A stretch of 64,000 bases of DNA, from positions 1-64,000 of IMG/VR virus record IMGVR_UViG_3300029288_000072. The stretch is one strand, 5' to 3'. The DNA is from a virus (lineage: Duplodnaviria > Caudoviricetes). The translations under genes and the position numbers were made by a program. The notes under the pieces were generated by a model. That model was not told where the DNA came from. It saw only the letters and a program-made list of their open reading frames with translations, and did no database searches. Shown in pieces: positions 7,404 to 41,577 of this stretch. How positions within the stretch are numbered: the stretch's first letter is position 1; the number at the start of each line of letters is the position of its first letter.

Positions 7404-7435
7404 GTTTTATTCCTTTTCACTCATTATATTTACAC

Positions 7436-7657: not shown

Positions 7658-7692
7658 TTGTTCCATTATATGTTCCTTAAAACACTTGTCAA

Positions 7693-7950: not shown

Positions 7951-8103
7951 GCAAATCATTATATCATCCTAAATACCTTTGCAATCACTTTCTTACTACT
8001 TGACATCCATCATAAACATGATATAGACAAAATGAGTGTAAAAACTAATAGGTTAGTAAATGAGTATAAAAATTAAAGGGGCAGTTTTGCCCCTTTAATC
8101 TGT

Positions 8104-8469: not shown

Positions 8470-8623
8470 GTCTGCCTCCTTGTACGACTAATTATATGCT
8501 CTTTCCAATCCTGTCAATCCCCCAACTTTTGTATAACCTTCCACCGATTTCCGTTTACATCCATCCCCAACATGATATAAACCTACTACTTCAATAGTAA
8601 ATGAGTATAAAAATAAATGGTCC

Positions 8624-9004
8624 TTATGGACCATTTACCACCACCCGATACAACTGCCTTGCATACTTGGGCATCTTCCGATGCAAGAGAGCCATACCCT
8701 TCGGACCCAGCGGAGTCGCGTACAATAGCGTTTTTCCGGCTGCATGTGCATTCCAATGAGAAATGATGCGCTGGGCTAGGATCGACAATATCTTTGCGTC
8801 TACACCCGAAAAACCAACCCCATTGTAATCAACTGTCGCTTCCTTTGATACTTCCTCCATAGTCTGAAACTGAAACACACGAACACACCCCTGCATCGCC
8901 CATTTAGAATCGTTCGCTAACTTATTCTTAATAAAACTAATAGCCTCCTTCTGGCTCATCGCCAAAATGCGGTCCCTAATAGCGGCTTTACGTTCGTTGC
9001 TCAT
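8624..9004 (-). CDS. phage hypothetical protein (QT..E...NGVGF.G.DA motif)
   Basis: Promoter, leaderless start. Confidence 0.75.
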   Translation of the reverse strand: MSNERKAAIRDRILAMSQKEAISFIKNKLANDSKWAMQGCVRVFQFQTMEEVSKEATVDYNGVGFSGVDAKILSILAQRIISHWNAHAAGKTLLYATPLGPKGMALLHRKMPKYARQLYRVVVNGP

Positions 9005-9172
9005 ATCAAACTATTGTATAACCATCCTACTCATGTCAAGATCCTAAATCATCCTTGACATTCTTAAATACCATGATAACTACCTCAATGAGTTTAAAAA
9101 AACTAATACATTAGTAAATGAGTGTAAAAACTAACCCCCTCCAAGTTTCCTTGGAAGGGGTGACAATCTTTG

Positions 9173-9868
9173 TCAGTCCGCTTCTACCATGAGGCTCGCA
9201 ACCTCGGCAGGCATAACCGTTTCCTTGTCGATGGTAAGACGGTCATAGTTGCCATCCTTGAGTGACAGCATCTTGTATGGCAACATACCATCCTCGCAGT
9301 AGGTCTCTACTTCCCCCTTCGCAATAGTGAGGGGACGGCTGTTGGTCGCCTTGTATTTGCCTTCAACGTGGACCTTGCGAGACACTTCAAGCACCGAAAC
9401 CATGATGCTAGCAACAGTCGGAACCCCGTCAGCATCCAGCACCGGCACCTTGACCTTGCGACCATCTACTACTCCGTCAGTAGTGACAAGGTGGCACTTG
9501 ATCCCCTGACCGCTATGGACGTAGCACCGAGCATGGCCTTGTCGATACCCGTCTGACTCCTTATCCCCTGCGAGAGTCTTGGTCAGACTCTCAACTACGA
9601 GGTTGCGAGCCTCCTCATGGAGCGCATCAGTAGCAACGTACCCCTTCGCACGTTCCAGCATACGCTGGCAACGCTTGCCATAAGAGAATCGACTAATGAA
9701 GTTGATAGTCGAAACCCCAGAAACGATGCACTTGGGATCACTGGTGCCACTGACATAGTTGTGGACAGTGGCAAAACCACCATGCCGACAACTATCCAGC
9801 ACGTTGAGCGCATCCAGTGTGCGCTCATCAATGTTTACAAGCGTTCCGTCGAGTGTGATGCGTGGCAT
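9173..9868 (-). CDS. hypothetical protein, 231 aa
   Basis: Promoter, AAGGAGG SD and terminator 9135-9161. Confidence 0.8.
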   Translation of the reverse strand: MPRITLDGTLVNIDERTLDALNVLDSCRHGGFATVHNYVSGTSDPKCIVSGVSTINFISRFSYGKRCQRMLERAKGYVATDALHEEARNLVVESLTKTLAGDKESDGYRQGHARCYVHSGQGIKCHLVTTDGVVDGRKVKVPVLDADGVPTVASIMVSVLEVSRKVHVEGKYKATNSRPLTIAKGEVETYCEDGMLPYKMLSLKDGNYDRLTIDKETVMPAEVASLMVEAD

Positions 9869-10023
9869 GCTTGCCTCCTTGTACGACTCATTATATCAAC
9901 CAAAATCAGTTTGCAAGTATTCTTCTGTTTACAATCGTCTTCATATTTCTACTATATTAGTTTACACTTGACATCCATCTAAAACATGATAATACAAAAA
10001 CTAATCCATTAGTAAATGAGTAT

Positions 10024-10295
10024 AAAACAAAACCCCGATGGGTGATCATTCCATCGGGGTCGTTGGCAGGCTTTCGCCTTTGGTTTGGTTGCGATCCTGC
10101 ACCAGCGGTGCCCCTACGCTTTGCCATGCGTGGGAGTTTATTGCATATCCTCCGCAGCCCATCTCCCAAAACTTGCGGATTAAGCCTATGACATTTGACG
10201 GGCAGGAGTCAGCCATAGGCAACTAACCCCTATTGCCCTTCATAATCGTCGCTTTAACATTTGCCCATCCTTATAGGTTAGGCGTTCATGTGTAT
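10024..10295 (-). ncRNA. Putative structured small RNA 5
   Basis: Own promoter (10302-10328); stems GCCUAUG/CAUAGGC and CCGCA/UGCGG, AGGC-GAAA-GCCU tetraloop; terminator 10024-10060. Confidence 0.6.
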
Positions 10296-10409
10296 GCCTA
10301 AATTATATCAACAATCTCAACTTGTCAATACCCATGTTTACACTTGACATCCATCATAAACATGATAAACGTAAATGAGTGTAAAACTAAAAGAGTGGTT
10401 TCCCACCCT

Positions 10410-10640
10410 TTAGTTTAATGGCCATTGATAGTCAATATACATTAGACGCAATATATCGAATATCTCACCAAAATCTGTCGAATTATACAACCGATCAAAA
10501 TTGTAAGGAGCAGATACAGGCTGATTCCGAATAAACTTATTGAAAAACCATTGACCAACTCGTAACGTCTTACGAGGATCATCTTCCTCATATTCCGTCA
10601 TTATGTTGCGAAAGGATGGAATTGGATGTTTGTAGCTCAT
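10410..10640 (-). CDS. hypothetical protein (leaderless)
   Basis: MSYKH start 7 nt after TATAAT. Confidence 0.65.
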   Translation of the reverse strand: MSYKHPIPSFRNIMTEYEEDDPRKTLRVGQWFFNKFIRNQPVSAPYNFDRLYNSTDFGEIFDILRLMYIDYQWPLN

Positions 10641-10803
10641 GATAACTATTATATCAACTACATAAACATTACAAGTGTAAACTTTACACTTGACATCCAT
10701 CATAAACATGATAACCATATTTAAATGAGTTTAAAACTAATAAGTTAGTAAATGAGTGTAAAGAAAGGGGATAGTTGTTCCCATCCCCTTTGTCGGTTTC
10801 CTA

Positions 10804-11622
10804 TTAAACCTCTACTTCCTGGACAGCCTCGACCGGAACCGGCTTGCCCGCCTTGAGAATCTTATCGACTGCCACCATAATAGCCTTAGCACTCTTTTCG
10901 GGAATCCGTTGGCCACCATGCAGGCTATTCCAATGCTGGATATAACCACGGGACTCGTCGCCACCCGCCAGACCTAAGACTTCCCCCACAATGTAAGCAA
11001 CCGTTTCCGCTTCAATTTCCCTAAGACTACGCTCCATCGTAGGATGTTCGGGGTTCCAATCGTTTTCCCCCGTATGACCCAGCACAATATGGGCAATCTC
11101 ATGGATCAGAGTCTTGGCAGGATGCATAGCAATCGGGGAAACTGCCACCTTGCGACCCTTGGCGTATCCCTGGCAGTTGCCATTTACCATATCATACGAA
11201 ACCCGCTCAATCCCCATCTTGTCCAAGCAACGATCCCCCTCCCAATCAACCGTATGAGTCTCATGCTTGAAACTATCAACCTCGCCACTCACAACCTCCG
11301 TCTGCGACAATGCAAACCACAGACTGCGGAATGTGAACCCAATCATACGAGGATCATCATTCTTTTCCCCCTTGCGTGCGAACAACGGCATGCACAAGGT
11401 CAGACCTTTGCTACCCTTGCGAACAACGCGACCCATCGTTTGCCAACGCTTGAAAGTAGCAATCGGACCAACTTCTATCCCCCTAATCTTCATCTGATGC
11501 ATAGCCAATAAACTATTCATAAAACTATAGTCGTGAAACATACTATAACATTGGGCAATAATGCCCGGCTTGCTAATAGCCTCGTCCAACAGAGTCTCAA
11601 ACGGGATCGGGGTGTCGTTCAT
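10804..11622 (-). CDS. ArdC-like antirestriction protein (ssDNA-binding N-domain plus zincin-like HExxH domain)
   Basis: YSFMNSLL, ATFKRWQTMGRVVRKGSKG, FALSQT, HEIAH, EIEAETVAY, SRGYIQHW. Confidence 0.8.
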   Translation of the reverse strand: MNDTPIPFETLLDEAISKPGIIAQCYSMFHDYSFMNSLLAMHQMKIRGIEVGPIATFKRWQTMGRVVRKGSKGLTLCMPLFARKGEKNDDPRMIGFTFRSLWFALSQTEVVSGEVDSFKHETHTVDWEGDRCLDKMGIERVSYDMVNGNCQGYAKGRKVAVSPIAMHPAKTLIHEIAHIVLGHTGENDWNPEHPTMERSLREIEAETVAYIVGEVLGLAGGDESRGYIQHWNSLHGGQRIPEKSAKAIMVAVDKILKAGKPVPVEAVQEVEV

Positions 11623-11819
11623 GTCTCGCTCCTATGCTATGGATTATATACCTTTCTTTCCACAGTCAATAGACAATCACCTTATCTCCCTTGTATAAAT
11701 CTCCATAAAATTTCTGTTTACATCCATCATAAACATGATAACTACCTAATTGAGTGTAAAACTAATAAGTTAGTAAATGAGTGTAAAACTAGAGGGGTGG
11801 TTTCCCACCCCTCTAGTCG

Positions 11820-12002
11820 TCAGACCATGACGCGCAACGCTTGCGCCTTGGCCAGCAGACTCCGCAACACGATGCGAGTAGCACCATCGTTGCGAACCTC
11901 CCAGCACAGCCGAATCTTATGATTCAGCCGATCAGTTGCAACGCTACGAGCGTTCTCACAACCAGCATAGGCGTTCAGGGTCGGAATGGCGATGGCAACC
12001 AT
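11820..12002 (-). CDS. hypothetical protein
   Basis: Promoter, AAGGAGG SD and terminator. Confidence 0.65.
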   Translation of the reverse strand: MVAIAIPTLNAYAGCENARSVATDRLNHKIRLCWEVRNDGATRIVLRSLLAKAQALRVMV

Positions 12003-18515: not shown

Positions 18516-18851
18516 TTATTTTTGACATGTTAGTTTCGTTTCTTCCCAACAAAGATAAAGTGTATTAATATAAGTAATATTATTTTTTCTAGTCATTATT
18601 TTAAATCCTAATTTATTATAATATTTTTCAATTTTTTCAATAATTTCTGGTGAAAGGTATATAAACAAACCATTAATATTATTTCCATCATTATCAATGG
18701 AATTTAAAGATATATAGAATTTCCCAGCAAAACAAGATTGTTTTATTTTTTTATTAATTACTTTAATTAGACGTTTTGTAAGTAAAAATTCTGATTGTGT
18801 ATTATTTTGTTTAGCCAGATTGAATGCGTCTTCTGCTGTTATCTGATTCAT
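18516..18851 (-). CDS. hypothetical protein, paralog of 18848-19168
   Basis: MNQITAEDAFNLAKQN. Confidence 0.7.
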   Translation of the reverse strand: MNQITAEDAFNLAKQNNTQSEFLLTKRLIKVINKKIKQSCFAGKFYISLNSIDNDGNNINGLFIYLSPEIIEKIEKYYNKLGFKIMTRKNNITYINTLYLCWEETKLTCQK

Positions 18852-19168
18852 TTTTGCATTGCCTCTTTTCCCCAATAAAGCCAAATTTGCGGAACTACTA
18901 TATCTAGCATATATCCTAGTTTAAACCCAAGTTTACTATAATATAATTCAACTTTTTTGATCATATCTGCTGAAAGATATACTCCAATTCCTCTGGCGCA
19001 ATTTCCGTAATCATCTATTGAGTGTAGAGATGTTGAAAATTTACCAACAGAACAATCTTCTTTAATTCTTTTGTTAATTTCATTAAGTAAACGGGTGGGC
19101 GGTTCAACTGTTTGTTGATTTTGTTTAGCCAGATTGAATGCTTCGTTAGCGGTTATTTGGTTATCCAT
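18848..19168 (-). CDS. hypothetical protein, paralog of 18516-18851
   Basis: MDNQITANEAFNLAKQN. Confidence 0.7.
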   Translation of the reverse strand: MDNQITANEAFNLAKQNQQTVEPPTRLLNEINKRIKEDCSVGKFSTSLHSIDDYGNCARGIGVYLSADMIKKVELYYSKLGFKLGYMLDIVVPQIWLYWGKEAMQK

Positions 19169-19184
19169 GATATTCTGCCTTTCT

Positions 19185-20411
19185 TTAAGTGTAAAGATGT
19201 GATATTTGGTTATCACATGATGATATTATATCATCAGATTTTACATTGTCAAGAGTCTTGTTTCCACTACCTGACTTAATGTTAGTATTATTAACACCAG
19301 AGGTCTGATATCCACAAGCGTAGATTTCCGTTAAGCCAACGGTATATATATTTTTAGCTGCATTATGATCACGATTTAATTGAAATCCACAAATATTACA
19401 TTTATAAGTTCTATTATTTAGATGTAGATCATTTTTTATATATCCACAATTTGAACATGTTTTAGAAGAAGGATACCAGCGATCAATTTTATGTAGGATA
19501 TTATTAAAAATATCTTTTTTATAAGTTAATTGTCTGATAATTTCTCCTACACATCCATCAGATGCAGATTTACCATACATTTTATTCCAAGATTTAACAC
19601 ACAAGTCTTCAATTATGATAATTTGGTTTTCATTACATAATTGTGTTGTTAATTTATGAGTAAAATCTTTTCTAATATCTGATATTTTCTTATGTAGTTT
19701 AGCTACTTTTATTTTTTGTTTTTCTCTATTTTTACTATTTTTCTTTTTTCTACTAAGACTTCGTTGGATTCTTTTTAATTTTTTGAGATTATTTTTTAAT
19801 GGTTTTGGTGAATGTATTTGATTACCATCCTGATCAGTAACTAATGTTTTTATACCAAAGTCAATACTAATTGTATTATTTGATTTTCTTTGTTTATTGT
19901 GGTTTTCTATATCAACAGAGATAGACGCAAACCATGTGTCTGCTTGTCTAGATATTACACAACTTTGGATTTTTCCAGTAAATCTTAATGGTTCTGTTAA
20001 TTTTATTTCACCAATTAACGGTACTTTAATATGTGTATCATTTATTTTAAATTTATCATTTGATAAATAAAACGAATCTCTCAATCCTTTCTTTTTGAAT
20101 CTTGGATATTTACTTTTCTTTTTGAAAAATGAATTAAAAGATTTATTCAAATACGAAAAAACTTGTTGATTAGCGTCTTTTGGACTTTCATATATCCAAG
20201 GAAATTCTGTTTCTTTTATTTTATTAAACTCTTTTTTGATTAAATTTGCATTTGGTTTAGGTAATGTATTATTACCTTTCCATTCTTTGTACATTTGTGT
20301 CCACTTAGATAATCCCCAATTATATGCAAATCTTGCACAACCACATGATTTTATAAGTTGAGATTCTTGTTCTTTATTTGGTGTAATCTCAATCTTATGG
20401 GATAAAATCAT
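19185..20411 (-). CDS. tnpB: TnpB RNA-guided endonuclease
   Basis: N-terminal GCARFAYNW, RuvC motifs IDFG / IEDL / RDHNAAKNI, Zn finger CSNCG..CNICG. Confidence 0.92.
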   Translation of the reverse strand: MILSHKIEITPNKEQESQLIKSCGCARFAYNWGLSKWTQMYKEWKGNNTLPKPNANLIKKEFNKIKETEFPWIYESPKDANQQVFSYLNKSFNSFFKKKSKYPRFKKKGLRDSFYLSNDKFKINDTHIKVPLIGEIKLTEPLRFTGKIQSCVISRQADTWFASISVDIENHNKQRKSNNTISIDFGIKTLVTDQDGNQIHSPKPLKNNLKKLKRIQRSLSRKKKNSKNREKQKIKVAKLHKKISDIRKDFTHKLTTQLCNENQIIIIEDLCVKSWNKMYGKSASDGCVGEIIRQLTYKKDIFNNILHKIDRWYPSSKTCSNCGYIKNDLHLNNRTYKCNICGFQLNRDHNAAKNIYTVGLTEIYACGYQTSGVNNTNIKSGSGNKTLDNVKSDDIISSCDNQISHLYT

Positions 20412-20554
20412 AATTCTAATCTACCCTTTAATGCTATTACACGTACATATTCTGATACAGATTTAAACCCAAATTGATTTGCTCGTTTCTTAAGTAATTC
20501 CTTTTCTTTAAATGTCATTCTTACATTTAATTTCGTTTCTTGTTTTGTACTCAT
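20408..20554 (-). CDS. 48-aa ribbon-helix-helix (MobC/CopG-like) protein
   Basis: MSTKQETKLNVRMTFKEKELLKKRANQFGFKSVSEYVRVIALKGRLEL; ATGA overlap with tnpB. Confidence 0.75.
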   Translation of the reverse strand: MSTKQETKLNVRMTFKEKELLKKRANQFGFKSVSEYVRVIALKGRLEL

Positions 20555-20670
20555 ATTGTCCTCACTTTTTATTTATATCGGAAAAATTGAAAATTAAAAA
20601 TATTTTTACTAGTGTAAATTTTTATATTTATTTTCATTTTTATACACAATTTATGTATCTAGATATATCT

Positions 20671-20806
20671 CCCTGATGCAATCTTCCCATTTACAAGGAG
20701 CAAGTTTATGTGGCTGTTTACTATATATTAAAGGAACCATGCTATTACCAGTTTCCTTGGTAACAAATGTTTCTCCATCTAATAATCGTTGAAACTTTTC
20801 GTACAT
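20671..20806 (-). pseudogene. 5' half of an S24/S26-peptidase-like gene split by the element
   Basis: MYEKFQRLLDGETFVTKETGNSMVPLIYSKQPHKLAPCKWEDCI (GNSMxP motif). Confidence 0.7.
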
Positions 20807-23658
20807 ATCAAATCCATTCATGAAATTGTATTAGGTCTATTTTTCTTTTAATTACATCTGCTGTATATTCTTTTCCTTTTAGCGCACACATATTTGCTGC
20901 TTTATCTTTATTAATTTTTATTACAAATGTAAAATCCTCGTTAATATGATTTGTTTCCACTAAATCTTTTTCTATTTCAGAAACCATTGTATATAATTTT
21001 GGTTCTTCGTTTGTATCAAAATTATATGCATTATCTTTTGAAAATGTATCACTATTATAATATAAAATATGTGCGGTTCCCTGTCCAACCATACATTTGT
21101 ATGTTAATGGATTGTTTTTGTATATAAAATGAAAAAGTTCTGTATGAAACATACATTTATGTTTAGTAAAATATTTCTCAAAAAATGGAGAATTAACATA
21201 ATCTATAAACGTCATGAATCTCTTATATCTTTCTTTATCATCATAAAGAAGATTTTCAGAATCTATAAATTCGTTTTCTATTAATTTTGGTAGAAATTCG
21301 TCTAACATGTCAATCTGACTCATTTGATTCTCCTAATAAAAAGGTTATAAACTCTTCTACTGTCAACCCATGATCTTTTGCCATTTTTGTGACCATCCAT
21401 TTATTAATTTCTATTATTTCTTCTATAGTTGGTACTGGTGGAGGATTATTTTCAAAATGTTTTTTAAGTAATAGAAAAGTAAATCTATCTAATCCTTTAG
21501 GTTCATCAGGAATATTGAAATTAACTAATTGATCATTATCCATTTCAAATATCTCTATAATCCCATTCTGTATATGGATGGTCTTTAACAAATTGGGTAT
21601 ATGCTTTTTTAGATGTAGCATATACAACAGTTTCAAAATTACCCCATACAGTACCATAATCTTTATGTGTTGCCTTGAATTCATTTATCCATTTGGAATA
21701 ATCTTCGTGAATTTGTCCATCTATACGCCATCCAGATTTCATTTTACCATTTTCCGGTAACAATGTTCTTGCTTGGCTTTTGAAATCTCTAGTAAATTCT
21801 ATTTTAAATCTTGCTCTTGGTTTCATTTTAACTCCTTTTAACTCTGATATAATATCATCACTTTAGGATAAGTCATGTTTTATTTTAACACGTTATGTTA
21901 ATGCTTTACATTTTATATAATCAACTAGATCATCTAATCTTTGTTTTATTACGTTATATGGATCATTATTGAATTCTATTTCCATTTCGTCTGTCATATC
22001 CATTGATCTGATTAGTATTAAATCGCCAAAATATATTATAAAATCTGAATATGTTAAAAACTCTATTGTTAAATAAGTATCAGTAAAATATGAATATGGT
22101 TTGCGATTATTACAGTCTTCTAGATTACAATTAAAATATACTATTGTATCTAGTAATTTTTTAATTTGGTCCATTTGATTCTCCTTTTAATCAGAATAAT
22201 GTTCGAAGATTTTATCACAAATATACATAACATGTTCATATGATCCATTAATATGGAATATACTTTCCAAAAACCCCTTTTCCTCAAACCAAGTTATATT
22301 ATAACCATAAAATTTTGCCTTTTCTAAATCCCGTTTTATTTGTTTACGAATCAAAAGACCGGCAGTTATTGTTCTTGTTATGGTATTTTTCATAAAATTA
22401 TCTTAATATAGATTCGTTTTTTCTAAACTTTCTGTAATCATTATAATCCTTTTTTAGGAGGAGGAGGTTTAACATTTGGACGGAGAGGAATCTCTTTTAA
22501 AGAGACAAAATTATTTCTTCCAAAATATATCAATTTTCTAATTAACCTTCTCTTCATTGTATTTCCTTAACAAGATTTGAAATTTCATTTACATTTTTTT
22601 CATATACATTTTTTTCATCAGTTAATTCGTAAACTTTATATATGAAGTCTCTAACAAATACACTTTCCTTCATACCGCAACATCCTATGTTATTATATAA
22701 ATTCAATATTTCTCGTTCGCCATCGGTCATAATTAAATTTGGAATAAAATATTTATCAGGATTATATTCTACTTTAATATTTTCTGGTAATATTCCTTTT
22801 GAAATTGCCCAATTCCTATATTCATATAATCTTTTCATCATTTCTTCTATAGATTTTTTGTGTGTATTAAATGACGTTATTGAAGTTTTTTTTATCTTTT
22901 CAAAATATTCATCTGATATTTTTTTATCAAATGGTGTCATATATAGTTCTTCGTCTACATATTGTTCGGAAGGATTTTGATTTAATATAACCGCGTTTGC
23001 CGTAGAAATATTATTATTTTCTTGTTTAACCTCTTTTTCAGACTGCTTTTCTTCTATAACAGTCTTTTTCTTTAAAAACCACATACTAGACTCCTTTTAT
23101 TAGTTTTGTTGATTATCTATCTTCAAATTATACAGAACTTCTTTAAAGATGCAAGCACAAACTACTGCACAATTTTTAACAACATTAATATCATTAGGAA
23201 CGTCTTTGTTATATAAATTTGATGAATATAAATGTTTTTTCTTAAATAAACATGTATGCGTTTTCACATCTAATAAATTAAATCCTTTATTGGTAACTCT
23301 AATAAATTGAAATATCCTATTACCCATTTGATAATAGGCACCGAGTTTAAAACTTCTAAAATATATGTTAAGCATAATCAATCCTCAATATATGATAGGT
23401 TCCATTTGTTCGCAAAATGCTCAAATGTTTTTCTTACATATGCAACTGGACTTAAATGTTCAGGATTATATTCAAAAAATCCGCCTCTTATTTCTGATAT
23501 ACAATCAACATCGTTCATGAAATTCAATTTATCAGATTCTTTTTCCAATTTTAACAAAAACATTGTATAATGTCGGATATCAATACAACAGGAAATATCG
23601 TCTTTTAATGATTCGCAATCAACTATTGTATTGTTATTTGAATCTCGTAAAAAATGTA

Positions 23659-24246
23659 TCATGTATTTAATCCTGTTATTTTAATCGGTTCTTTTGTTGC
23701 TATATATGTTGTATCCCAATTAGAATACAACCAATCGTCGTACTTCATCCAATAAACATCACCAAAAATATTCAAACATAAAAACATATCAGAATCTTCG
23801 TCATAGTGTTTAATAACAAAACTATGACATTCTGTATAATTTACTAATATTTGTTTTATATTGTTATTAAAAGATAAACATTGTATAGGTTTAACTCCCA
23901 ATATAATAGGGATATTTTTAATATTATCATATATATCATAACATTTACGTTTAATATGACATGATGTTAAAATGGGATAATGGTTCAAAAATGTTACTAT
24001 AATTTCTTTGTCATTTTTAATACTTGCTAAATTTATTCCCAAATCATTAGAAATACAATATAAATCTGCTGGTGATGTTCCATAATGGAGTTTATACTTC
24101 CTAGCAATATATTTAAGTTTTTTTATAGGTGGAATTGGCATAGAATAATGTTCTAACAAATTTAGAATAGCTATAAATCCACATGTATTTTCTGGTCCTT
24201 GTGTATAACAAGTTTTAATCTGGAATTGTTCTAGACATTCTTGCAT
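23659..24246 (-). CDS. C39-like cysteine peptidase-fold protein
   Basis: QGPENTCG...GTS...HSFVI...N. Confidence 0.55.
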   Translation of the reverse strand: MQECLEQFQIKTCYTQGPENTCGFIAILNLLEHYSMPIPPIKKLKYIARKYKLHYGTSPADLYCISNDLGINLASIKNDKEIIVTFLNHYPILTSCHIKRKCYDIYDNIKNIPIILGVKPIQCLSFNNNIKQILVNYTECHSFVIKHYDEDSDMFLCLNIFGDVYWMKYDDWLYSNWDTTYIATKEPIKITGLNT

Positions 24247-27200
24247 TTATTAACCTTTATATCAAATTCCAATTCCCATTCCAATTCCCATTCCAGTATT
24301 TTTAATCGTGTAATACAATTATCAATATTAGTTCCTGTCTTAAAATTATTTTTAAATTCGTCTGAATTTAAAAATTGGTGCAATTTACTTGCAACAAACC
24401 ATTTCTTTTCTTTATCACTAATATGATTTACAAACGCTTCGTATTTTAGATATATAGGATATGCACTATTCATTATTTTTTGAACAAATTCTTTTACTGT
24501 ATCTGTATGCGAAATAGTATAATCATTTTTATCAAATAAAGAAATAGGAAATTCTTTGTTGATGGTGAAATCCATAAAATCACTAAATGCTGTAATAGAA
24601 ACAGTTACATTATTTAAAGTAGGAATAACTTTAATAATTAATGGGCAATACTCTGTTATAGGGGTTTCGTCAATGGAAAATGTTATCCCAAACAATTTTC
24701 TAGGTATTTCTTTTATTCCGACAATTTTAGTAACATATAAGTTGCAGAGCGGGTCGAAATAGTTAAGAACTCTTTCTTTTAATTCTTTTTCTTTTCTAGA
24801 TATATTATTTACAACATCAATTATATTGTTCATTTTTCTTCCTTATTAAAAATTTGTTTCATATGATAATAAAATGCTGGTTTCTGAGTAAAAAACGGAT
24901 GCATATCGTGAGTACAATTAAATATTAATTTGTAATGGTCATTCAATCCTTTTCTTAGTCTTTCAGATTCTTGAATTTCTTCTTCTTGTGTCATTTTTCT
25001 TCCTTTATATGTTTTTTATTCTCACATGCAAAACACCCAAACTCAATGAACAGAACCAGAGGGATCATCCACAAAAGTACTAACCAGTTCCATCCAGACA
25101 ACTCAAGTACAAAGAAAAAGAGGAGTCCAGTTGATATGTTTCCCAACATAATAACTATATTATAAAAACGTTTCATTGATGATATTTTCATTTTTCTTCC
25201 TTATGATATGGTCTGTTGTATCTATTCTGGTCAAATGTCCAATCCATTAACTTATTGTCGTTTGGTATATTTTCAAAATCTGGAACCAATGCTTTACAAA
25301 CGTCATATGCATCAAAATATAGATTTTTTAAAGAATTAATATAGTTCATTTCTTTCTCAAAATATTGACATTGTTGTTCGTTTTTAAAATATACAGAATA
25401 TTTAATAAGAAATTGGTCCAATGATAATGTTTCAAAATCATTTGAAAATTCTGGAAAATTGTTTCCATTAAATTCTGACGGCATATTACTAAACAAAAAC
25501 CGTTTCCATTCGCATCTACTAACAACTTTCCATGCTTCAAGAAATTCCGTCATTGTTTTTGCGTCTACCATATCATTCTCCTATTAGATTATCAAAAAAT
25601 TGTATTGCTTTAAACTCGGGAGGAAAAGATAAAACATCCTGCAAATCTTTAACAAATCTTGTTGTTAGTGTTTGGATTTGTAATTTATTATCTTCTATCC
25701 AAAAAATCATATCTTTATATTGTAATATACAAGAACGTTTTATTCCATCAGAATCTATTGGGGTTTCTTTTGCAGCCAATAACATTAAAGGCAAAAGACA
25801 AAATGATTCATCTTTTAAAAATTGTTCTACTGTGTCTTGTTTCATTATATTTTCCTTATAATATCAGTATTATCCTGTAAAAGAATTGGTACTGGTGCAA
25901 TACCAAAGTGCCATTTAGACTTTGTTTTGCATGTTATACAAGTATACCATCCCTCGCCAGTAACTCCTTCTTGGTCTGTCTGTGCCTCCCACATTGCTTG
26001 ATCGTTAAGAAGATCACTGCAGCAAGGGCAATAACAAGCGCAGCCGCAATTGTGTATAGATAAAGATACACGCTTTTTCCACCGTGCGTTTTCTATCCAT
26101 TGTTTGATACGTTTCATTTATTTCTCACTTTCCTAAACATTCAACAACATGTTTACAACCATTATGACATATATTCATCGCATTTTCCTTATCCATCCAA
26201 CCAAGATTCTCGTTCATATTCTAGCTTTTTTAATTTTTCAATCCACTCATTTGCTTTATTTAATTCTTCATAATTTCCTACATGTTGTACGGAAGGATAT
26301 ATGCAATCATAATGAAAATGTATATTAACTTTTTTATTGCCAACCTTACATCCCTCAATAACAATTGAAGTTTCATTTTTTCCAATAACCTTTTCACATA
26401 TACGACATATTCTTTCTTTATCGCTTTTATGCATTTTAATTTTTGCCATATTTAGTCCTTTAAAATTTTTATTCTATGTTAGATTATATTCTTTATTATT
26501 TCAATGTCAATAACTAAGTTTTATTCAATTTATAATTGTTTTCTAATCTAGTTTCTGCGGTAATATGTTTACAAAACTCAACGTTATGTGTCATTTAAAC
26601 TCTTTATATAATGTAAAAACATCACAGAAAATATGTTTTTTGTATCAAGTGAAATAACATAAAAACTTGATTCACTATATTCCACAACATAATAATTTTT
26701 AGTTAAAAGAATTTTAAAAGTCATTTTTTGTCCTAAAATAATCACAAAAGCATAACCATACAAAAACCAAATCTATATTCTCACAAACTAAAATATTCTT
26801 ATCTAAATATGTTATCCTTAATAATTTATTTGATCCAGTATGAACAACCGGAACTATTTTAAACTCATTAATTATTCGATTAATCATAATACAATGAATT
26901 TTAGGAAATTTCTGCGGCATAACATATTAAAAGGTTTAACAAATACGGTATAGTTGCCTTGTCTTTTTCGCAACGTGTTATACATTTATTTTTAAAACGT
27001 ATTAAAACAAAATTTAATCCATTATTTTTAATTTTAGGGTATTCATTTACAACAAAGTCATTACAAATATGCCAATACTTAAATATTTCACTAAATAGGT
27101 TTCTTCCATTCCAAAACGTATATTCGTTTTTATCTATTTTGCTTAAAATCTTTGAATATATATTTATTCTTTCGTAATAATAATGTATTATACAAGTATC

Positions 27201-27611
27201 CTCACATGGACGAATTACTTTAATATCAATATTCTTTGACATGTATTACCCAAAATTTAAATACGTTCCTAATAGTCAAATCCTTTTTAGAAAGAGTTAA
27301 AAGAAATTTGTCATGACCAGATTTATTTATTAATGAACAAGTATAATATTCTCCAGGGAAGAATGTATCGTCTTTTATAATTTTTATTTCTGGATAATAT
27401 ATCATGATTTTCCATCAAGTATGGCATTTCCTACATCAGAGAGAAATATTGCACCAGACTCATCTTCCCGAACAAGCCCCTTGCTGGTCAACATTATCCA
27501 CAACGCTTCACCAATTGGTTCATGATCCTCTTTAAAGATGGCAGAGGTTGCATGTCCGTTAGTGTTCCTAACATATTCTAATACTCTCAAATGTGGATTC
27601 ATAAATGATCC

Positions 27612-28703
27612 TTATTTTATAATTGTTGTTTCAAGGAATTTTTTACACTCACCCAAATATTTTTTTAATATTTTATTGCATATATCAAATGTTAAATGAT
27701 TTCTGCATATCTTAACAATATCTAAAAGAACAGTCTTATCTCTCTTTACAATAATGTTAATATACTTCATCTTTATATTATCACTAAACATCATATCAAA
27801 TATAAAATTTTCTAAATTTTTATAAATTATATAATAATACTTATCAGTTTTAAGTAACTCTCGTTCTACCAATTCTTTTAAAAACTCTTTCGTTGGTTCA
27901 GTTAATGTACAAAATTCTTTAAATATTGTTTGTAAAATGGATGGTCCATGAAAATCTATTCCATAATCCAACTCAACATCCATTCCTATTAAATACGCAT
28001 TTACAAGTTCTTTAAAACTGAACTTTTTTGGTCTATATATTAGCGTTTCATTGCATTTTGATTTTAAATAATTAATAATATTGATATCAGAAATTCCCAA
28101 ATATCTATTTAATACTCTGTTAGTAATGCTTATATCACTATTTACTAATTTATCAATCAAATCTATTTTCATATCTGAGCATAATATACCATCCCATAAT
28201 TTTTCTTTATCAAACTCAATATTTAATTTTACTATTTCTTCTATTTTATCAATATTTTGAACTATTAGTTTATGTCTATCTTTTTCTTTAATAAACGGCA
28301 ATAATATACCTAAATCCTTAATTGATAAATCATAAAAATCAAAATCATAAGCATCCATTGATATCTCTATGTTATTATCTCTTGCTAACTTCTGTAACTT
28401 TACATCTTTACATAAAACTCTAGGATTATATAATATAAATCCTAACTTATCTATATCATTAAACTTATACGAGTTTAAATATTTTATGGAATCCGTTGTA
28501 TCAAACCGCAATAAAAATGAATAACGCAACTTCTTTTTGTCTGGTTCTTTTACCATTATCTTAAAATCTTTATAATCGAGTTTATGTGTTGGACAAAACA
28601 AACTATATAATGCGTAGTTACCCATCATATTATTTTTGTTTTTCTCTACATATTCGGACATTTCTTTTCGTGCTTTAGAAACTAAAGAATGTACTAAATT
28701 CAT
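27612..28703 (-). CDS. hypothetical protein, 363 aa
   Basis: Long ORF with SD. Confidence 0.75.
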   Translation of the reverse strand: MNLVHSLVSKARKEMSEYVEKNKNNMMGNYALYSLFCPTHKLDYKDFKIMVKEPDKKKLRYSFLLRFDTTDSIKYLNSYKFNDIDKLGFILYNPRVLCKDVKLQKLARDNNIEISMDAYDFDFYDLSIKDLGILLPFIKEKDRHKLIVQNIDKIEEIVKLNIEFDKEKLWDGILCSDMKIDLIDKLVNSDISITNRVLNRYLGISDINIINYLKSKCNETLIYRPKKFSFKELVNAYLIGMDVELDYGIDFHGPSILQTIFKEFCTLTEPTKEFLKELVERELLKTDKYYYIIYKNLENFIFDMMFSDNIKMKYINIIVKRDKTVLLDIVKICRNHLTFDICNKILKKYLGECKKFLETTIIK

Positions 28704-29008
28704 TTTGTATTCCTTTCAGATAATGTATGATATAATTTTATTAAAACTATAATACTTAGTTTTTAAACCTTTTCGGAATAGGAGGCCCACCATTGGGCCA
28801 CACCATATAATGAGGAAGAAATGCCGCACCAAGTGGAATTGTAATTAATCCAACAGGATATGCAAACAATCTAATGAACATAGGTTGCATCATACAACCA
28901 TAATGCCATCCAATGGCTGTAAACACAAGTTTTTCCCACACAGATAAGTCTTTAATTGGCATTTTATACTCCTTTAACTATCTTATTCTACATATATATT
29001 TTAATATG

Positions 29009-29371
29009 TCAAATTAAAAAATCTTTATCTTTTAATTCTTTTAAAACTTCTTTCCAATCTACATTTTTATTTTGGTCTAAACTACCCCCACATGATTTAT
29101 CATCAATAATCAAATTAAAATGTGGTTTATGAATATGAATTTCATCATATTCGATTCCATGACAATTTAAATAGTCTATCATTTCAGAATGACCATTTTT
29201 CATGTTTGTTTCTTTATCATTACTTCTAACAGAATATATTATAAGTTTGTGTCCAGATTCCTTTAACCTTTTCAATACATATAAACACTCAGAAGAAGGT
29301 CCAGGAACTAAGGAATCATTACAACCTTTGTTAGGACATATAGTTCCATCAAAATCAATACAAATATTCAT
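29009..29371 (-). CDS. HAD-superfamily phosphatase-like protein
   Basis: ICIDFDGTI, S/T motif, KP...IIDDK. Confidence 0.8.
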   Translation of the reverse strand: MNICIDFDGTICPNKGCNDSLVPGPSSECLYVLKRLKESGHKLIIYSVRSNDKETNMKNGHSEMIDYLNCHGIEYDEIHIHKPHFNLIIDDKSCGGSLDQNKNVDWKEVLKELKDKDFLI

Positions 29372-29456
29372 CTGTTACCTTTCTAAAAAAGATTTAGCAG
29401 ATTTATGCCATCGCCGTGTTTAGGGGCCGCACACATATTATTTCATTTCTAACACC

Positions 29457-29526
29457 ATTATACTAACTCATATTCTTATGTCAATTAAAACTTTTTATTT
29501 GACTTCAAAATCCTTTTGTTTATAAT
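29457..29526. promoter_or_regulatory. Back-to-back divergent promoters at the strand switch
   Basis: TTGACA-N16-TATAAT leftward; TTGACT-N16-TATAAT rightward. Confidence 0.75.
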
Positions 29527-30762
29527 CATCAAATCGAAACATTCTAAACTTAACCTACAAAGGAATTATATGAGGCCAGGAACCATAATTCAATTACAAG
29601 ATGGTAGAATCGGAACCACTGTTTTCAATGGTTTAATTGGTATAGGAATAAAATGGGGTGAACATACATTACCAGAAGGTATATTGGATGAAACTAGTGC
29701 TGAATTTACTAGTAATATCCCAGAAGATTTTGAATGGGAACCAGATGCAATATTACGAAATCCGTGGGATGGTTGTGACCGTTATGGATTTACTAAAGAG
29801 CAATGTGTCGGAGATAATTTTGTTGTATTACGCAAAGGGAAATGAGACAATATATGTTCAATAAGGAACAACGAGCACATATGGAATACCTTTTTAAAAT
29901 ACCAAACTCTTTGAAATGTTGGTGTGGATGGTATCTAAAATGTGAATGCCCAAAATGTCCACCGGATAAAAGTCGAGAAGACTATTATGAAGATAAAAAA
30001 TTAAAGGAAAAATTAAAATGAAAAGATTTAATCTAGAATATCTTGTACCCGACTCCTGTTCGTGTCCAAAAGGTATGGTAGAACGTCCAGACGGAAAATA
30101 TGTTCTGTATAATGATGCTAAAGAAGAAATAGATCGTATTACAAAACAACCAATAAGTGACAATATACAACTTGTTAATAGAATTCAAGAATATCTCCTT
30201 CATGGTGGATTATTTAATCCAGAATTGGCTATCCATGAAAATGTTCGTGATTTATTAATGGACATTTTAGAATATCTTAAACCCGAAACAAAAGAAATTG
30301 ATAAACGATGTAAGCATGGAGTTTTTCTAACTCATCGGTGCAGAGATTGTGAACAAGAACCAATATGCGAAAAAGACTTCGAACTTTTCAAAAAACAATT
30401 ATTAGGATCAGAAGATATTTATTCAAAACATATTGTAGAAATCTGGACTGTCGGATCGTTAGACTCAATTAGTTATGTTATTATAGAACCATATAACAAA
30501 ATAGATAACTCTTGGTGGGCTATCAATGGTGAATATATTGTTATTCCCAATAAAGAAAAATCAGAAGTATATCTCCCATATACAAAAATAACTCATGAAT
30601 CACACTATCTAGGTGATGTCGAATATACTGGAAACTATAACGAAACTATTAATAATTATAAAGATACTAAAAAAATAATAGGTTTTAATGGAGTTAAATT
30701 CAAAGAACAATTAAAGCCAACCGTCGAAACCGACGAACCACCATTCTAAAAAGGAATATAAA

Positions 30763-31026
30763 ATGATATTAATTAATGCAAAAGATGCATCTAATGCATA
30801 TTTAAACAATAAATTTAATGAGGAAGAAAAATACTTCATTTTCAAAGAAATTGAATCTATATTAGAAGAAATAAATTCAAAATGTAAAGATATAAACTAT
30901 ATAACAAGATTTTATGGTAATCAAGAGGATATTATAATATCGTTTATAGCATTTAGATTACAAAGATTTTTCGGATATAACATAAGATATGGAGTTCATA
31001 AAGAAATAATTATATCATGGGCATAA
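30763..31026 (+). CDS. hypothetical protein, likely distant paralog of the 18.5-19.2 kb pair
   Basis: INAKDA... start, FGYNI...IIISW end. Confidence 0.6.
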   Translation: MILINAKDASNAYLNNKFNEEEKYFIFKEIESILEEINSKCKDINYITRFYGNQEDIIISFIAFRLQRFFGYNIRYGVHKEIIISWA

Positions 31027-31039
31027 CAAAATAAAAAGG

Positions 31040-31225
31040 AGCTAAAAATATATATACCGTTGGCTTAACGGAAATCTACGCTTGTGGATATCAGACCTCT
31101 GGTGTTAATAATACTAACATTAAGTCAGGTAGTGGAAACAAGACTCTTGACAATGTAAAATCTGATGATATAATATCATCATGTGATAACCAAATATCAC
31201 ATCTTTACACTTAAAGAAAGGCAGA
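31040..31225 (+). mobile_element. 186-bp stand-alone copy of the tnpB 3' end / omegaRNA right end
   Basis: Reverse complement of 19174-19359, no mismatch seen by eye. Confidence 0.9.
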
Positions 31226-31379
31226 TATTGTTTATTGTAAAGTAAAAGGAAGGTTCTACACTCATTTAGTAGTTGCAATTGATCAGAATAAAGGCTGTTT
31301 AATCGGAAATAATAGAGGACATATTAATGGATGGACCAAAAAGGTTTTTGGTAAGGTTATAGAGGTTCTACCTTTATAA
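31224..31379 (+). pseudogene. 3' half of the split S24/S26-like gene
   Basis: DIVYCKVKGRFYTHLVVAIDQNKGCLIGNNRGHINGWTKKVFGKVIEVLPL*, no start of its own. Confidence 0.7.
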
Positions 31380-32958
31380 TAAAATATAAAAGAATATTAT
31401 TATGTTATGTGAAGCATGCGGAAAAAATCAAATATATACATGGTTGGATGTTGAAATAAATAAATATCCGGAACAATCTGAAGTTAGAGTTTGTAATATT
31501 TGTGAAGAATGTTTAATTAAAATAGATCCTGATATGTGGATCAGTAAAGAAATATGGGAAGATATAAATCCTGTAGTACCATTTGAAGAGTTAAGACCAT
31601 ATGATGTAGAAGAATTAGTATATCAGTGGATTAAATTTTGTAAACATTATGTTAGAAATAAAATTTAAGTATAATAAAAATCTCCATACAGAAGAAGTGA
31701 CATCTATAACTATACGATATAAATTAGATGGTAGAACTATTTTAAGAAAAGAATATCCAGCAGACTTTGTTAATTCACCAAATAATTTTGTAGTTTTGTG
31801 GATAGATTATTCAAAATTGTTTGAGAAAATTAAATCTGGATATAAATTTGAATCATATCCAGCAGATATTTGACAGTAAAACAACATATGTAAAGATTTT
31901 TGAAAATACTATCAAAAAAGGAATTAAAATGAAATATATAATTTTACAGTTACTAATTGCAGGAATAAATGTACCATTTATGTTTCGTGAATGGCACCAT
32001 AATAATGTTAACTATTTAATATTTGGATTTTGTTTAGCATGTGCATTTTGTAGTTCTATAGCAAAATACTATTCAAGAAAACAAAATATTTGACTTGTAT
32101 TGTTTTCAAGGTATACTATACTACAATCATGTCAAAAGTACCATTAAAAGAGCAATATCTAATTATAGATGCCATATGTTATGCTTACGACCATTATGCA
32201 GATTATTTTGTATATGTGAAAAATGCGTTAGAAAAAGAAAAAATTGAATATAATAGTTCCCACGAAGTATTTGTAGAAGAATATCTAACTGAATCGGGCA
32301 TTTGGTAAAGGATTAAAATGACTCAAAAACTTTTTACACCCGAATCTTTTTCCAAAGAAGATTATGATCTTTTACAAAAGGCTGGATTTAGATTTGTAAA
32401 AGATCGTCATGAAGATACATGGCATATAACTATTCTGTTTAATCGTCAACGGTGTGGATGGTCTTATTGCTGGAATATAGATGTTGTAAAAGATATTATA
32501 AATCTTTTAAAACTTGATTCGGATGTAAATTCGGATGAAGTTTATAATAGATTTTATAAACGTTTAAATATTATAACATACGAATATGAGCAATCTTTTT
32601 CACGATTACATTACAAACATAGAAGTGGTTCTCCACATTTTTATAATACAAACAGATGGATATTAGAAAATGAATTAGTTGCAGAAGGTGATGATTATTA
32701 TTTTATTAATTATATTCCAATGGGAGATACAGCAGACGGTAGTATACATACTAAAAAATTATATAAAACATTAGATCCAGTTAAGCAAATAGCTATAAAT
32801 GCTATACAAAAACAAATAGAATCTGCAATTGAATTCAAAGAATTAATAGAAAAATATGACATGACATTTCATCAATGAAGTATAAATGTATTAATAAGTA
32901 TAAAAAATTATTTTATGATACAATGAGTATAAATAAATTATATAAAGGAAGTAATAAT

Positions 32959-33111
32959 ATGAGAACGAAGTCATTAATCGTAAAAGTAACAGAAAATGAA
33001 CAAAAACTAATAAAAGAACGAGCAGAAGCATTAGGATTTGATTCAGTTAGTGATTATATACGATATATAGCACTAAATACAGAAAGTATTAAAAGAAGTA
33101 TAAGTAAATGA
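32959..33111 (+). CDS. ribbon-helix-helix (MobC/CopG-like) protein
   Basis: MRTKSLIVKVTENEQKLIKERAEALGFDSVSDYIRYIAL; ATGA overlap with the next gene. Confidence 0.75.
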   Translation: MRTKSLIVKVTENEQKLIKERAEALGFDSVSDYIRYIALNTESIKRSISK

Positions 33112-34367
33112 AAACATATAAACTACCAATAGTAATAGAAGAAGATGACAAATCATATATAAATGATTTGTGTCGTCAACAATCTATTATAGTTCGTAGT
33201 TCATATAATGATTTACTAAAAGGTAATTTAGTCAAAGACTTAGAACAAAAATACAAATCATTAAATAATATAGAAGATATGGATTCATGGTTTATTAGAT
33301 GTGGTATTCTTAGAGGAAAATCATTAACTAAACACAAACATATAATATTTGGTGGTAAACATACATTATCAAAATTGAATAAAAAGAAGATAACTAAAGA
33401 GGAATGGAAAAATAGAAGATTATATTCACTAGACATACAAGGTGAAAAACATCAAGGTGGTAATAGAAAATTCGAATTAAAATTAGAAGAAAATCAAATA
33501 TTATTCAAACCAAATAGAAATAAGAAGATATTAATTCAATTACCAAAGATAAGAAGAAAGTGGAAGAATGAACTTCAATATATTCAAGAAACTGAATCCT
33601 GTTTTTCAATTAAATTAACCAATAATACAATAGAAATCGTAGTAGATGAATTATTATTCAAACATGATAATTATTCATCAATAAAAGGAAGAATATTAGG
33701 TATTGATCTTAATCCAGATTATATTGGATATAATATTACTGATTTTCCGAAGAAAAAAGTAGTAATCAAAGAATGCTATAATACAGAAGAATTAAATACA
33801 AAATCAGGATTATCATCAGATCATCCAAAATCAAAATATCTCAAAAATAAAAGAAAATACGAATACTTACAAATATGTCACGAAATTATCCAAAAATGTA
33901 TTCATTACAAAGTAGAAAAATTATGTATCGAAGACCTTAATATTAAATCACAAGATTTTGGTAATAAACATACTAATAGAAAAAATAACCTTTGGATGAA
34001 AACCCTAATAAATAATAAACTGAAAATGTTGTGTAATATAGTAGGTATCGAATATGTAGAAATTAATCCAGCATATACTAGTATTATTGGTAATTTAGTA
34101 TATAATGATTTCGATCCAATAAGTGCAAGTAGAGAAATAAGTAGGAGAGGTTATTATAAGTACCAGAAAGGTAAGTTCTATCCAGGTTTAGAGTCTGTGA
34201 AACACCAATGGAAGGAAATGGTCACAGAAGATATCAATTCATGGAAAGAATTTGCCACTAAATTAAAAACTCTGGACATCAGATACAGAGTTCCACTAAA
34301 TGAAAATCATGTGGTTTCTAGACTTAAATATATAAAAAAGAAAATAACTTTATACTCTTTTATATAA
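33108..34367 (+). CDS. Divergent TnpB/Cas12f-like RuvC nuclease lacking the Zn finger
   Basis: ILGIDLNP, IEDL, INPAYTSIIG, DPISAS..I.RRG. Confidence 0.8.
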   Translation: MKTYKLPIVIEEDDKSYINDLCRQQSIIVRSSYNDLLKGNLVKDLEQKYKSLNNIEDMDSWFIRCGILRGKSLTKHKHIIFGGKHTLSKLNKKKITKEEWKNRRLYSLDIQGEKHQGGNRKFELKLEENQILFKPNRNKKILIQLPKIRRKWKNELQYIQETESCFSIKLTNNTIEIVVDELLFKHDNYSSIKGRILGIDLNPDYIGYNITDFPKKKVVIKECYNTEELNTKSGLSSDHPKSKYLKNKRKYEYLQICHEIIQKCIHYKVEKLCIEDLNIKSQDFGNKHTNRKNNLWMKTLINNKLKMLCNIVGIEYVEINPAYTSIIGNLVYNDFDPISASREISRRGYYKYQKGKFYPGLESVKHQWKEMVTEDINSWKEFATKLKTLDIRYRVPLNENHVVSRLKYIKKKITLYSFI

Positions 34368-40071: not shown

Positions 40072-40326
40072 ATGGAAAAAGATATTTTAATAGTAGAAGA
40101 TTCTCAAGAAAGAATGAAACATATTAAACAATATGTTATAGGATATTCTTATGATTTAGCAGAAACGGCTGATTCTGCAATTTATTATTTAAAATCGTTT
40201 CAATATGATTATATATTTTTAGATCATGATTTAGCACAAAAGCATTACGAAAAAGAAGTTTTTGGAAAAGGAACAGGATTAGAGGTAGCTAATTATATTG
40301 CTGACAATCAACTACCCACAACCTAA
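40072..40326 (+). pseudogene. Stand-alone receiver-domain protein (cyclic-phosphate-processing type), truncated by the IS
   Basis: ILIVED...IFLDHDL...GTGLEVA; reads into the IS end. Confidence 0.65.
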
Positions 40327-41577
40327 AGGTAGTGGGTTTGTAACTAACTCTTGCGAGTCGCTACAATAGGCTGGTTGATTTCAGCCCTTGAAATATTAAT
40401 AGCAGCATTGTAGTCTGCATTAACTTCATAACCACAAGAAACACATTTAAAGTTTTCTTGAGTTAGTCTGTTTTCTTCGCAAATATACCCACATTGACTA
40501 CACTTCTGGCTTGTATAAGCAGGATTAATATATAACACTGGAACTCCAAGTAACTTTGCTTTATAGTCAATCATTTGTCTTAATTGACCAAAAGCCCACT
40601 TACCTCTTCGTGCATTATTATCCTTCCATTCTTTAGTCCAACCTTTTTGCGGAACTTGTTTCTTGAAGTTTAGATCTTCTAATTTGATTCCAACTCCAAG
40701 TGTCTTTGCTTTTTGAACTAAACGTTTACTTATACAATGATTTGTATCTTTCTTGAATCTTGATTCTTTTTTACTTATTTTCTTTAATCTACGCTTTGCA
40801 CTTCTACTACCTTTACTTTGCAATCTTGCTTTATATGAAGTTATTTTCTTTCTATAAGTCTCTACTCTTTCTCCACTTACAACTTCACCATCAGAGCAAG
40901 TAGCAAGATTTACTATACCTAAATCTACCCCAAGGAAATCTTTAACTTTATTAGTAGGTTCTTCGCTTGTTTCAGCGAAGAATGTAACATAAAACTTCCC
41001 TTTAACTTTATCATAACTTAATTCACTTTGACAACTTAAATCTAAATCTTCTAATGACTTACGAGTTCTAAATGGTAATTGAGTTCTTTTACCCAAAATC
41101 ATAATAGATAATTCATTATCTTTTTTAATAGTTAAATTTCTACTATCGTAATCAATTGAACCTAACTCGTTAAATGTCAATACTTTATTCTTTTGATTCC
41201 AGTTTTTATAGCAATCAGTTACTTTACCTATAACTCTTACAGCAAGTTGACTTGAAAGATTAAATCTTTGTTTTATCTCGTAATATACTATTTTATGTAA
41301 ATTAACTTTATTAAAAGTTTTTGTTTCAACTGCTTTTTGACTTACCCAATCACAAGCAGAATTAAAAACTTTCATAACATTAAGGAGTTCTTGATGTTGT
41401 TTTTCGTTTGGTAATAATTTACATTTAACTGCTAACTTCATCTTTTCCTCCTTTCATACTAATATATTTATAATCGAAAAATAAAATTTGACAAACTTTT
41501 TTATTCTATTATAATAAGTAGTAGAAAGGACGGCAATTACTCCCACCACCTAAAGGTAGTGGGTTTCCTTGCCGACA
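40307..41577 (-). mobile_element. IS200/IS605 (IS1341-type, tnpB-only) element
   Basis: Subterminal hairpins CCCACTACCTTTAGGT(G/T)GTGGG at both ends. Confidence 0.85.
40344..41441 (-). CDS. tnpB: TnpB
   Basis: GVDLG, LEDL, CSQCG..CVSCG, ADYNAAINI. Confidence 0.92.
   Translation of the reverse strand: MKLAVKCKLLPNEKQHQELLNVMKVFNSACDWVSQKAVETKTFNKVNLHKIVYYEIKQRFNLSSQLAVRVIGKVTDCYKNWNQKNKVLTFNELGSIDYDSRNLTIKKDNELSIMILGKRTQLPFRTRKSLEDLDLSCQSELSYDKVKGKFYVTFFAETSEEPTNKVKDFLGVDLGIVNLATCSDGEVVSGERVETYRKKITSYKARLQSKGSRSAKRRLKKISKKESRFKKDTNHCISKRLVQKAKTLGVGIKLEDLNFKKQVPQKGWTKEWKDNNARRGKWAFGQLRQMIDYKAKLLGVPVLYINPAYTSQKCSQCGYICEENRLTQENFKCVSCGYEVNADYNAAINISRAEINQPIVATRKS

Follow-up and report, generated by a model that had tools for sequence, protein, structure and literature searches.

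A TnpB element and an inverted, gene-less copy of its right end bound an apparently inverted 11.7-kb segment in a T4-like phage

The stretch of DNA analysed here (the window) comprises bases 1-64000 of the 198,442-bp IMG/VR virus record IMGVR_UViG_3300029288_000072, estimated to be 84% complete, the source of which is a large, lytic T4-like phage. It carries an element encoding the RNA-guided nuclease TnpB and, in inverted orientation and separated from it by 11.7 kb, a gene-less copy of the end of that element, here termed the mini-copy, with the two identical ends forming the arms of an inverted repeat. The region of interest is AT-rich (G+C about 26%) and its features are as follows.

18848-19168 (-): gene of 106 aa whose spacer between Shine-Dalgarno (SD) sequence and ATG received the right-end copy
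19159-19174 (-): predicted guide adjoining the full copy in this orientation, AATATCATGGATAACC, covering the spacer, ATG and first codons of gene 18848-19168
19174-19359 (-): arm 1, the terminal 186 nt of the full element (tnpB 3′ end and right end)
19175-20668 (-): full element with a ribbon-helix-helix (RHH) gene and tnpB, about 1494 nt, lying between the two S24-like gene halves
19185-20411 (-): tnpB, 408 aa, with the Pfam domains given below
20408-20554 (-): RHH gene (NikA-like), 48 aa, Pfam PF21983 (E 7e-9), overlapping the tnpB start
20570-20577 (-): T4-type late-promoter motif TATAAATA ahead of the RHH gene, from a motif search
20669-20821 (-): 5′ half of an S24-like gene, within open reading frame (ORF) 20651-20821, ending GGGAG (20669-20673) directly before the left end
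19360-31039: segment between the arms, 11,680 bp, apparently inverted relative to its order at insertion
29457-29484 (-) and 29499-29526 (+): divergent sigma-70 promoter pair within the segment
31040-31225 (+): arm 2, the gene-less mini-copy, with the inserted unit proper at 31042-31224 (183 nt)
31057-31142 (+), mirrored at about 19257-19342 (-): omegaRNA scaffold core, a four-helix RNA structure that is conserved and covaries
31147-31174 (+), mirrored at 19225-19252 (-): perfect sigma-70 promoter (TTGACA, 16 nt, TG-n-TATAAT), directed outward
31225-31240 (+): predicted guide adjoining the mini-copy in this orientation, 16 nt, ATATTGTTTATTGTAA, the start of the S24-like 3′ half
31225-31379 (+): 3′ half of the S24-like gene (ORF piece 31224-31379), following the mini-copy

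A repeat search identified the inverted repeat at 19174-19364 and 31035-31225 with 99% identity, and BLAST located within it a perfect core identical at 186/186 positions (19174-19359 and 31040-31225), bearing out the inverted 186-bp copies of the tnpB 3′ end described in an earlier, sequence-only reading of this DNA. Besides the arm pair, the 198-kb record has no long near-perfect repeat, only one long repeat of 84% identity formed by two TnpB copies. The same phage was recovered by exact-protein look-up in ENA assembly ERZ27247363 and in a Logan contig of SRR8542065, both identical to the window over the ~24 kb compared except for one extra A at 20673/20674. Megablast of window 17-33.5 kb against GenBank phages gave no match.

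The full element runs from its left end through the late promoter, the RHH gene, tnpB and the omegaRNA region to the right end ...GGCAG, with its boundaries ambiguous within the repeated AGATAT. TnpB scores above the Pfam cut-offs for PF12323 (HTH_OrfB_IS605), PF01385 (OrfB_IS605) and PF07282 (Cas12f1-like_TNB), and its RuvC D/E/D residues and CxxC..CxxC zinc finger are present and align with those of ISDra2 TnpB (8EXA/8BF8; catalytic residues D191/E278/D361). A database search returned TnpB relatives at 68-72% identity, and the DNA of four of them was fetched. The 3′ regions of the relatives align at the DNA level with the arm through ...GGCAGA followed by total divergence, which fixes the right end of the element, while both left and right ends are homologous to those of L135 and L137.

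In L137 (68% identity) a MerR+Resolvase TnpA gene, the hallmark of IS607, lies directly upstream of tnpB, and in the window the RHH gene occupies the slot where relatives carry tnpA. A small DNA-binding ORF in the TnpA position is common to the window element and L088, that of L088 having no Pfam match, and no RHH upstream of TnpB was found in the IMG/VR relatives. A Resolvase (serine-recombinase TnpA) is absent from both the element and the 198-kb record, and no Y1_Tnp domain was found in the record. The element departs from IS200/IS605 in having no Y1 TnpA and a left flank of GGAG, with Y1 TnpA being carried by more distant TnpB relatives at 37% identity. Taken together, a transposase-less, IS607-type TnpB element of about 1.5 kb would best explain these features. 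The RHH gene is 53% identical to a second RHH (32875-33111), a NikA-like gene of 78 aa coupled to a 419-aa protein without a Pfam match, the pair (window 32875-34367 (+)) lying only 1.5 kb from the S24-like 3′ half.

At the left junction the window has GGG[AG]ATATATCTAGATAC, L135 has AGG[AG]ATATAATCTAGATAT and L137 has TGG[AG]TATAG..., with AGG[AG] at the mini-copy, while right junctions read GGC[AG]A in 6/6 contexts, such that the dinucleotide common to all junctions is AG, preceded by GG or GC. This pattern fits a putative 2-nt AG crossover core and an NGGAG target, a sequence of the form RGGAG occurring at only 0.0008 per position in this genome. For IS607 TnpBs a target-adjacent motif (TAM) of AGGAG or GAGGG has been reported together with an ISFba1 scaffold of 187 nt (PMC11061315), in keeping with junctions after NGGAG and a scaffold of about 185 nt here; single TAM changes abolish cutting by ISFba1 (PMC11061315). 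As such, the right-end GGCAG may act as a one-mismatch TAM mimic protecting occupied sites. Like the IS607 family, the element has a 68% relative with a MerR+Resolvase TnpA and no target duplication beyond the 2-nt core, but it differs from that family, exemplified by ISFba1 (PMC11061315) and CboIStron (PMC10690162), in having an RHH gene in place of TnpA, a core that is apparently AG and not GG, no RAGATH-18 match and a conserved outward promoter in the right end. The motif CGAYTTAAAACATA is common to L135:2290-2310 and L137:1735-1755, just upstream of the left-junction GGAG and with unrelated right flanks, and may reflect an extended target preference or a longer left end.

Both arms carry the whole of a conserved RNA structure. 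Across five elements 26 pairs were predicted, 13 of them with compensatory changes, with 93% of cells paired compared with 28-42% in slid controls and the observed covariation attained in 0/500 shuffles; the fold of the single sequence gave a z of -4.7. The structured RNA spans the tnpB 3′ end to the right end, as expected of TnpB (OMEGA). Between scaffold core and right end lies the outward, early promoter, matching 12/12 hexamer positions with an extended -10 about 50 nt from the right end and kept in L135, L137, L138 and L140. The right-end terminus itself carries an SD-like GAAAGG, 9-10 nt before the ATG of gene 18848-19168, and together with the outward promoter it would reduce polar effects on the genes downstream.

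The mini-copy lies between AAAAAGG[AG] (AGG[AG] = 31037-31041) and AATATCATGG, with flanks of the AATATC../ATATTG.. type on the far side. Its insertion site is right after AGGAG, the SD of gene 18848-19168, 6 nt before the ATG, and L135 has likewise been inserted between AGGAG and the start codon of a gene. The mini-copy lacks any left-end sequence and begins within tnpB, its left edge being an internal TGC[AG]|CTAAA of tnpB that mimics the right end GGC[AG], which suggests that the 183-nt unit was excised site-specifically and not by random deletion. After a flip of the segment the mini-copy would sit between AAAAAGGAG and AATATCATG, as the sequence-only reading had proposed, but the flip would not restore the SD and start of gene 18848-19168 as also claimed, since the arms are identical and the sequence directly upstream of that gene stays unchanged; the original SD would be restored only by removal of the mini-copy. 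Likewise, the proposal of three paralogs stands for 18848-19168 and 18534-18854, which are 47% identical, with 30763-31026 (geneX) rejected as the third since BLASTP gave no alignment with the other two.

The evidence that the segment has been inverted comes from the S24-like gene. The 31224-31376 piece matches 706 longer proteins, the best 120 of which are 94-117 aa long, at most 86% identical and encoded on large viral contigs. When nine relatives were aligned, the N-terminal half with its GNSM motif corresponded to 20651-20821 (-) and the remaining, C-terminal half to the 31224 piece, the two not overlapping. Uninterrupted homologs were found at 96-103 aa, with which the two halves align end to end, so that the split of one gene between the left end of the element and the mini-copy was confirmed. 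Peptidase_S24 (PF00717) is recorded for relatives P0069, P0081 and P0101, while neither half alone reached Pfam significance. Judged by these alignments, the two ORF pieces are the halves of one S24-like phage gene of ~100 aa.

Flipping the DNA between the arms lines up the 5′ half, the full element and the 3′ half. It had been cautioned that the rejoined gene is 1 nt out of frame, which is true of this contig only: ENA ERZ27247363 and Logan SRR8542065 read CAAGGG, with the extra A at 20673/20674, where this contig reads CAGGG, and with the extra A the 5′ half reads ...APCKWEDCIKGDI, matching ...CIKGDIVYC... of the relatives, and the 3′ half joins in frame. Since the other assemblies carry the A, the missing base would be a variant or error of this contig. 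The split gene, in frame in two other assemblies, supports an inversion of the segment compared with the order present when the S24-like gene received the element. Codon 31272-31274 in the 3′ half specifies Val where 113/120 homologs have Lys (YTHLV-K-A), a change that may represent decay of the interrupted gene at a position that is not strictly invariant. The gene neighbours of S24 across 81 related loci were too diverged to reveal the ancestral order, with only L007 sharing a few genes, on the right side.

The consequences of an inversion for the two guides are limited by the identity of the arms, which leaves both guides and all four arm/flank junctions unchanged. The earlier proposal that inversion swaps which guide is in cis is correct by geometry, the sole effect being that the flank following tnpB is swapped, but it is overstated in that the same four junctions and two guides are present either way. 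The divergent promoter pair claimed inside the segment was located there, and gene polarity is the same in both orientations.

The S24-side guide has counterparts in other phages. Together with GGAG, the 16-nt guide has no mismatch in intact S24-like genes at 7/81 other viral loci (AGGAG in 5 and GGGAG in 1), with one mismatch at 11 further loci and many others differing only at the glycine wobble (GGTG or GGGG). From these comparisons, both the insertion site of the element and the match to its predicted guide fall within a highly conserved part of a phage gene that is widespread, as with homing endonucleases. No second close match to either guide was found in the phage's own genome. A scan of viral contigs for GCAG followed by the guide, as at an occupied S24 site, gave a single match (L134), which was dismissed as chance, lying inside an unrelated structural gene. 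As the mini-copy holds the whole conserved RNA structure and the right end, it is plausible that two omegaRNAs with different guides serve one TnpB.

The reading we prefer, with a probability of about 0.6, is that of a TnpB element, a mini-copy of its right end and a recombination-driven inversion of the 11.7 kb between the arms, with the guides used as proposed. The full element would have entered the most conserved stretch of the small S24-like gene, right after GGGAG, and a 183-nt gene-less right-end copy would have entered after the AGGAG SD of another gene. Recombination between the 186-bp arms would then have inverted the intervening 11.7 kb, such that each scaffold now abuts the flank of the other site. 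With no invertase or resolvase domain present, the plausible agents are homologous recombination by the phage's own RecA/UvsX-type machinery, a RecA/UvsX-like protein being encoded in the 198-kb record, or a serine recombinase supplied in trans, with the AG core as its site. Both RNAs would load onto the single TnpB, and the loaded nuclease would cut NGGAG-adjacent 'empty' alleles in co-infecting phages. Given the lack of a transposase in the record and the presence of a late promoter, RNA-guided homing or competitor exclusion during co-infection would be the best reading of its function.

In this account the orientation seen in the contig would be physically real and would probably coexist with the other isomer, and the assemblies bear on this. 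The MEGAHIT assembly (ENA ERZ27247363) consists of three contigs (19,378, 11,963 and 167,364 nt), the second of them holding the segment, with ends exactly 141 nt (= k) inside the arms. The IMG/VR contig spans both arms, for which an assembler needs read pairs or long reads and cannot rely on k-mers only. We therefore lean toward the contig's order being real in the phage DNA. Several observations weigh on the other side. The MEGAHIT assembly leaves the orientation undecided, and JGI metagenome contigs yielded neither the flipped junction nor the right end itself; an exact scan of viral contigs for the right end likewise gave no match. At the level of the element, the scaffold has no Rfam match, RAGATH-18 included (window 18.5-32 kb, E <= 1), and TnpB scores slightly closer to ISDra2 (IS605-type) than to 8IAZ, which appears to be ISFba1 TnpB judging by its length and a D-to-A change. 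The NGGAG TAM is drawn from four junctions and the literature, with no TAM definable in the flanks of L088, and transcription from the internal promoter would yield only about 45 nt of scaffold.

The first of two alternatives that we consider possible but doubtful is that the order in the contig reflects a choice by the assembler, with the real DNA existing only in the flipped form, the element intact in the S24-like gene and the mini-copy between geneX and gene 18848-19168. The flipped order would explain the split gene, and since all four arm/flank junctions are common to both orientations, reads shorter than the arm cannot discriminate; in keeping with this the independent k=141 assembly breaks in both arms, leaving the 11,963-nt contig an orphan. 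Set against this, the read pairs or long reads needed to cross both arms normally follow the majority order, and no contig with the flipped junction was found, in a search that may exclude the phage's own records.

A similarly tentative alternative, compatible with either orientation, concerns not the inversion but the mini-copy, which could be a remnant of the right end, retained because it supplies the downstream gene with an outward promoter and SD. Promoter and SD-like end may offer a reason other than the guide for its retention, the perfect sigma-70 promoter about 50 nt from the right end being conserved in all relatives and GAAAGG lying 9-10 nt before the ATG of gene 18848-19168. That the internal promoter yields so little scaffold is in keeping with a mini-copy kept for its promoter and not for its guide. 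The full covarying scaffold is also kept, 100% identical, which a promoter role does not require, although this identity may simply reflect a young copy.

It is improbable that the terminal 186 nt of the element were duplicated in one step, through a single inversion event involving staggered breakpoints or template switching, with no separate insertion. Just two new junctions would be needed and short microhomologies (AG, AGA/TAT) are present at both, but the mini-copy starts exactly after the internal GCAG that mimics the right end and lies exactly after AGGAG, and the same junction rule in three independent full insertions points to site-specific insertion. Least likely by far is a programmed switch by a dedicated Gin/Hin-type invertase, which an inverted-repeat-bounded segment with internal divergent promoters resembles, as neither the segment nor the 198-kb record yielded a Resolvase-family or any other recombinase domain, the arms being transposon ends with gene polarity and guides the same both ways.

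A more far-reaching possibility, and an unlikely one, is that the 183-nt module is a guide-only mobile element. It would be cut out at the GCAG pseudo-end by a trans-acting serine recombinase and spread among co-infecting T4-like phages by cleavage of NGGAG-A empty sites by TnpB in trans followed by recombinational repair, with two isomers interconverting through the parent element.

Stand-alone, effector-less omegaRNAs acting in trans have already been described (Altae-Tran 2021, as summarised in PMC10691335), as have omegaRNA-bearing palindrome-associated transposable elements (PATEs; Meers 2023, PMC10055086). The mini-copy has the layout of the former, being a scaffold copy that has no effector ORF, shares its genome with a compatible TnpB and has its own, different flank, which would provide a second guide in trans. 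It differs in residing in a lytic T4-like phage and in being inverted relative to its parent, such that the pair is also an inversion substrate. A PATE is a gene-less IS200/IS605 derivative that retains both ends, whereas the mini-copy has no left end and starts at an internal GCAG pseudo-end. The coupling of a small RHH gene directly upstream of tnpB recalls the RHH/MazE-TnpB pairs, which are archaeal and immobile with a rearranged RuvC-III (PMC10691335), whereas the present pair has a canonical D/E/D and is part of a mobile element in a phage.

As a selfish phage nuclease with a late promoter and a highly conserved target stretch in a shared gene, the element is like the Seg/Mob homing endonucleases of T-even phages, except that recognition would be by RNA guide and TAM, with homing or exclusion the proposed outcome; a framework for 'transposon non-restorative homing' has been set out (PMC13565253). 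Invertible regions bounded by inverted repeats and phage genome isomers have been described for the cyanophage A-1(L) group (10.64898/2026.02.14.705889), which likewise has a large segment flanked by inverted repeats and the same doubt between polymorphism and assembly artefact. The arms here are 186 bp compared with 400-700 bp in that group and are copies of a transposon end, and here the coexistence of two isomers is a proposal. New here is that parent and mini-copy form an inverted pair which makes 12 kb of DNA invertible, that the junctions follow an AG-core/NGGAG rule in which an internal pseudo-end takes part, that an outward promoter is conserved, and that conservation of the target in other phages is demonstrated.

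If the proposed activities are correct, a lytic phage would harbour an RNA-guided nuclease that functions in homing or exclusion. The coincidence of the TAM with the SD would direct insertions to the space between SD and start codon, with the outward promoter and SD-like end compensating for such insertions, and a guide-only derivative would widen the target set. For phage metagenomics the locus carries a caution, in that with a transposon-end repeat of just 186 bp, k-mer assemblers can no longer decide the order of 12 kb.

Other features of the window were noted. Two IS605-type TnpB elements of 365 aa each lie at 40306-41588 (-) and 60021-61338 (+), inverted, 19 kb apart and 84% identical over about 1 kb. 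In each, the two ends carry matching subterminal hairpins (AAACCCAC..GGTGGG), the right end terminates GGGTAGTTGATT and the TATAAATA motif precedes the gene. A 417-aa ORF at 55648-56901 (-) has a LAGLIDADG_3 domain and is thus another homing-endonuclease-type gene of the same phage. Window 1-12000 has a G+C of 33-47% compared with about 26% for the remaining window and carries families of short direct repeats at 850-890, 4098-4143, 4900-5000, 7993-8081, 10337-10762 and 11717-11797.

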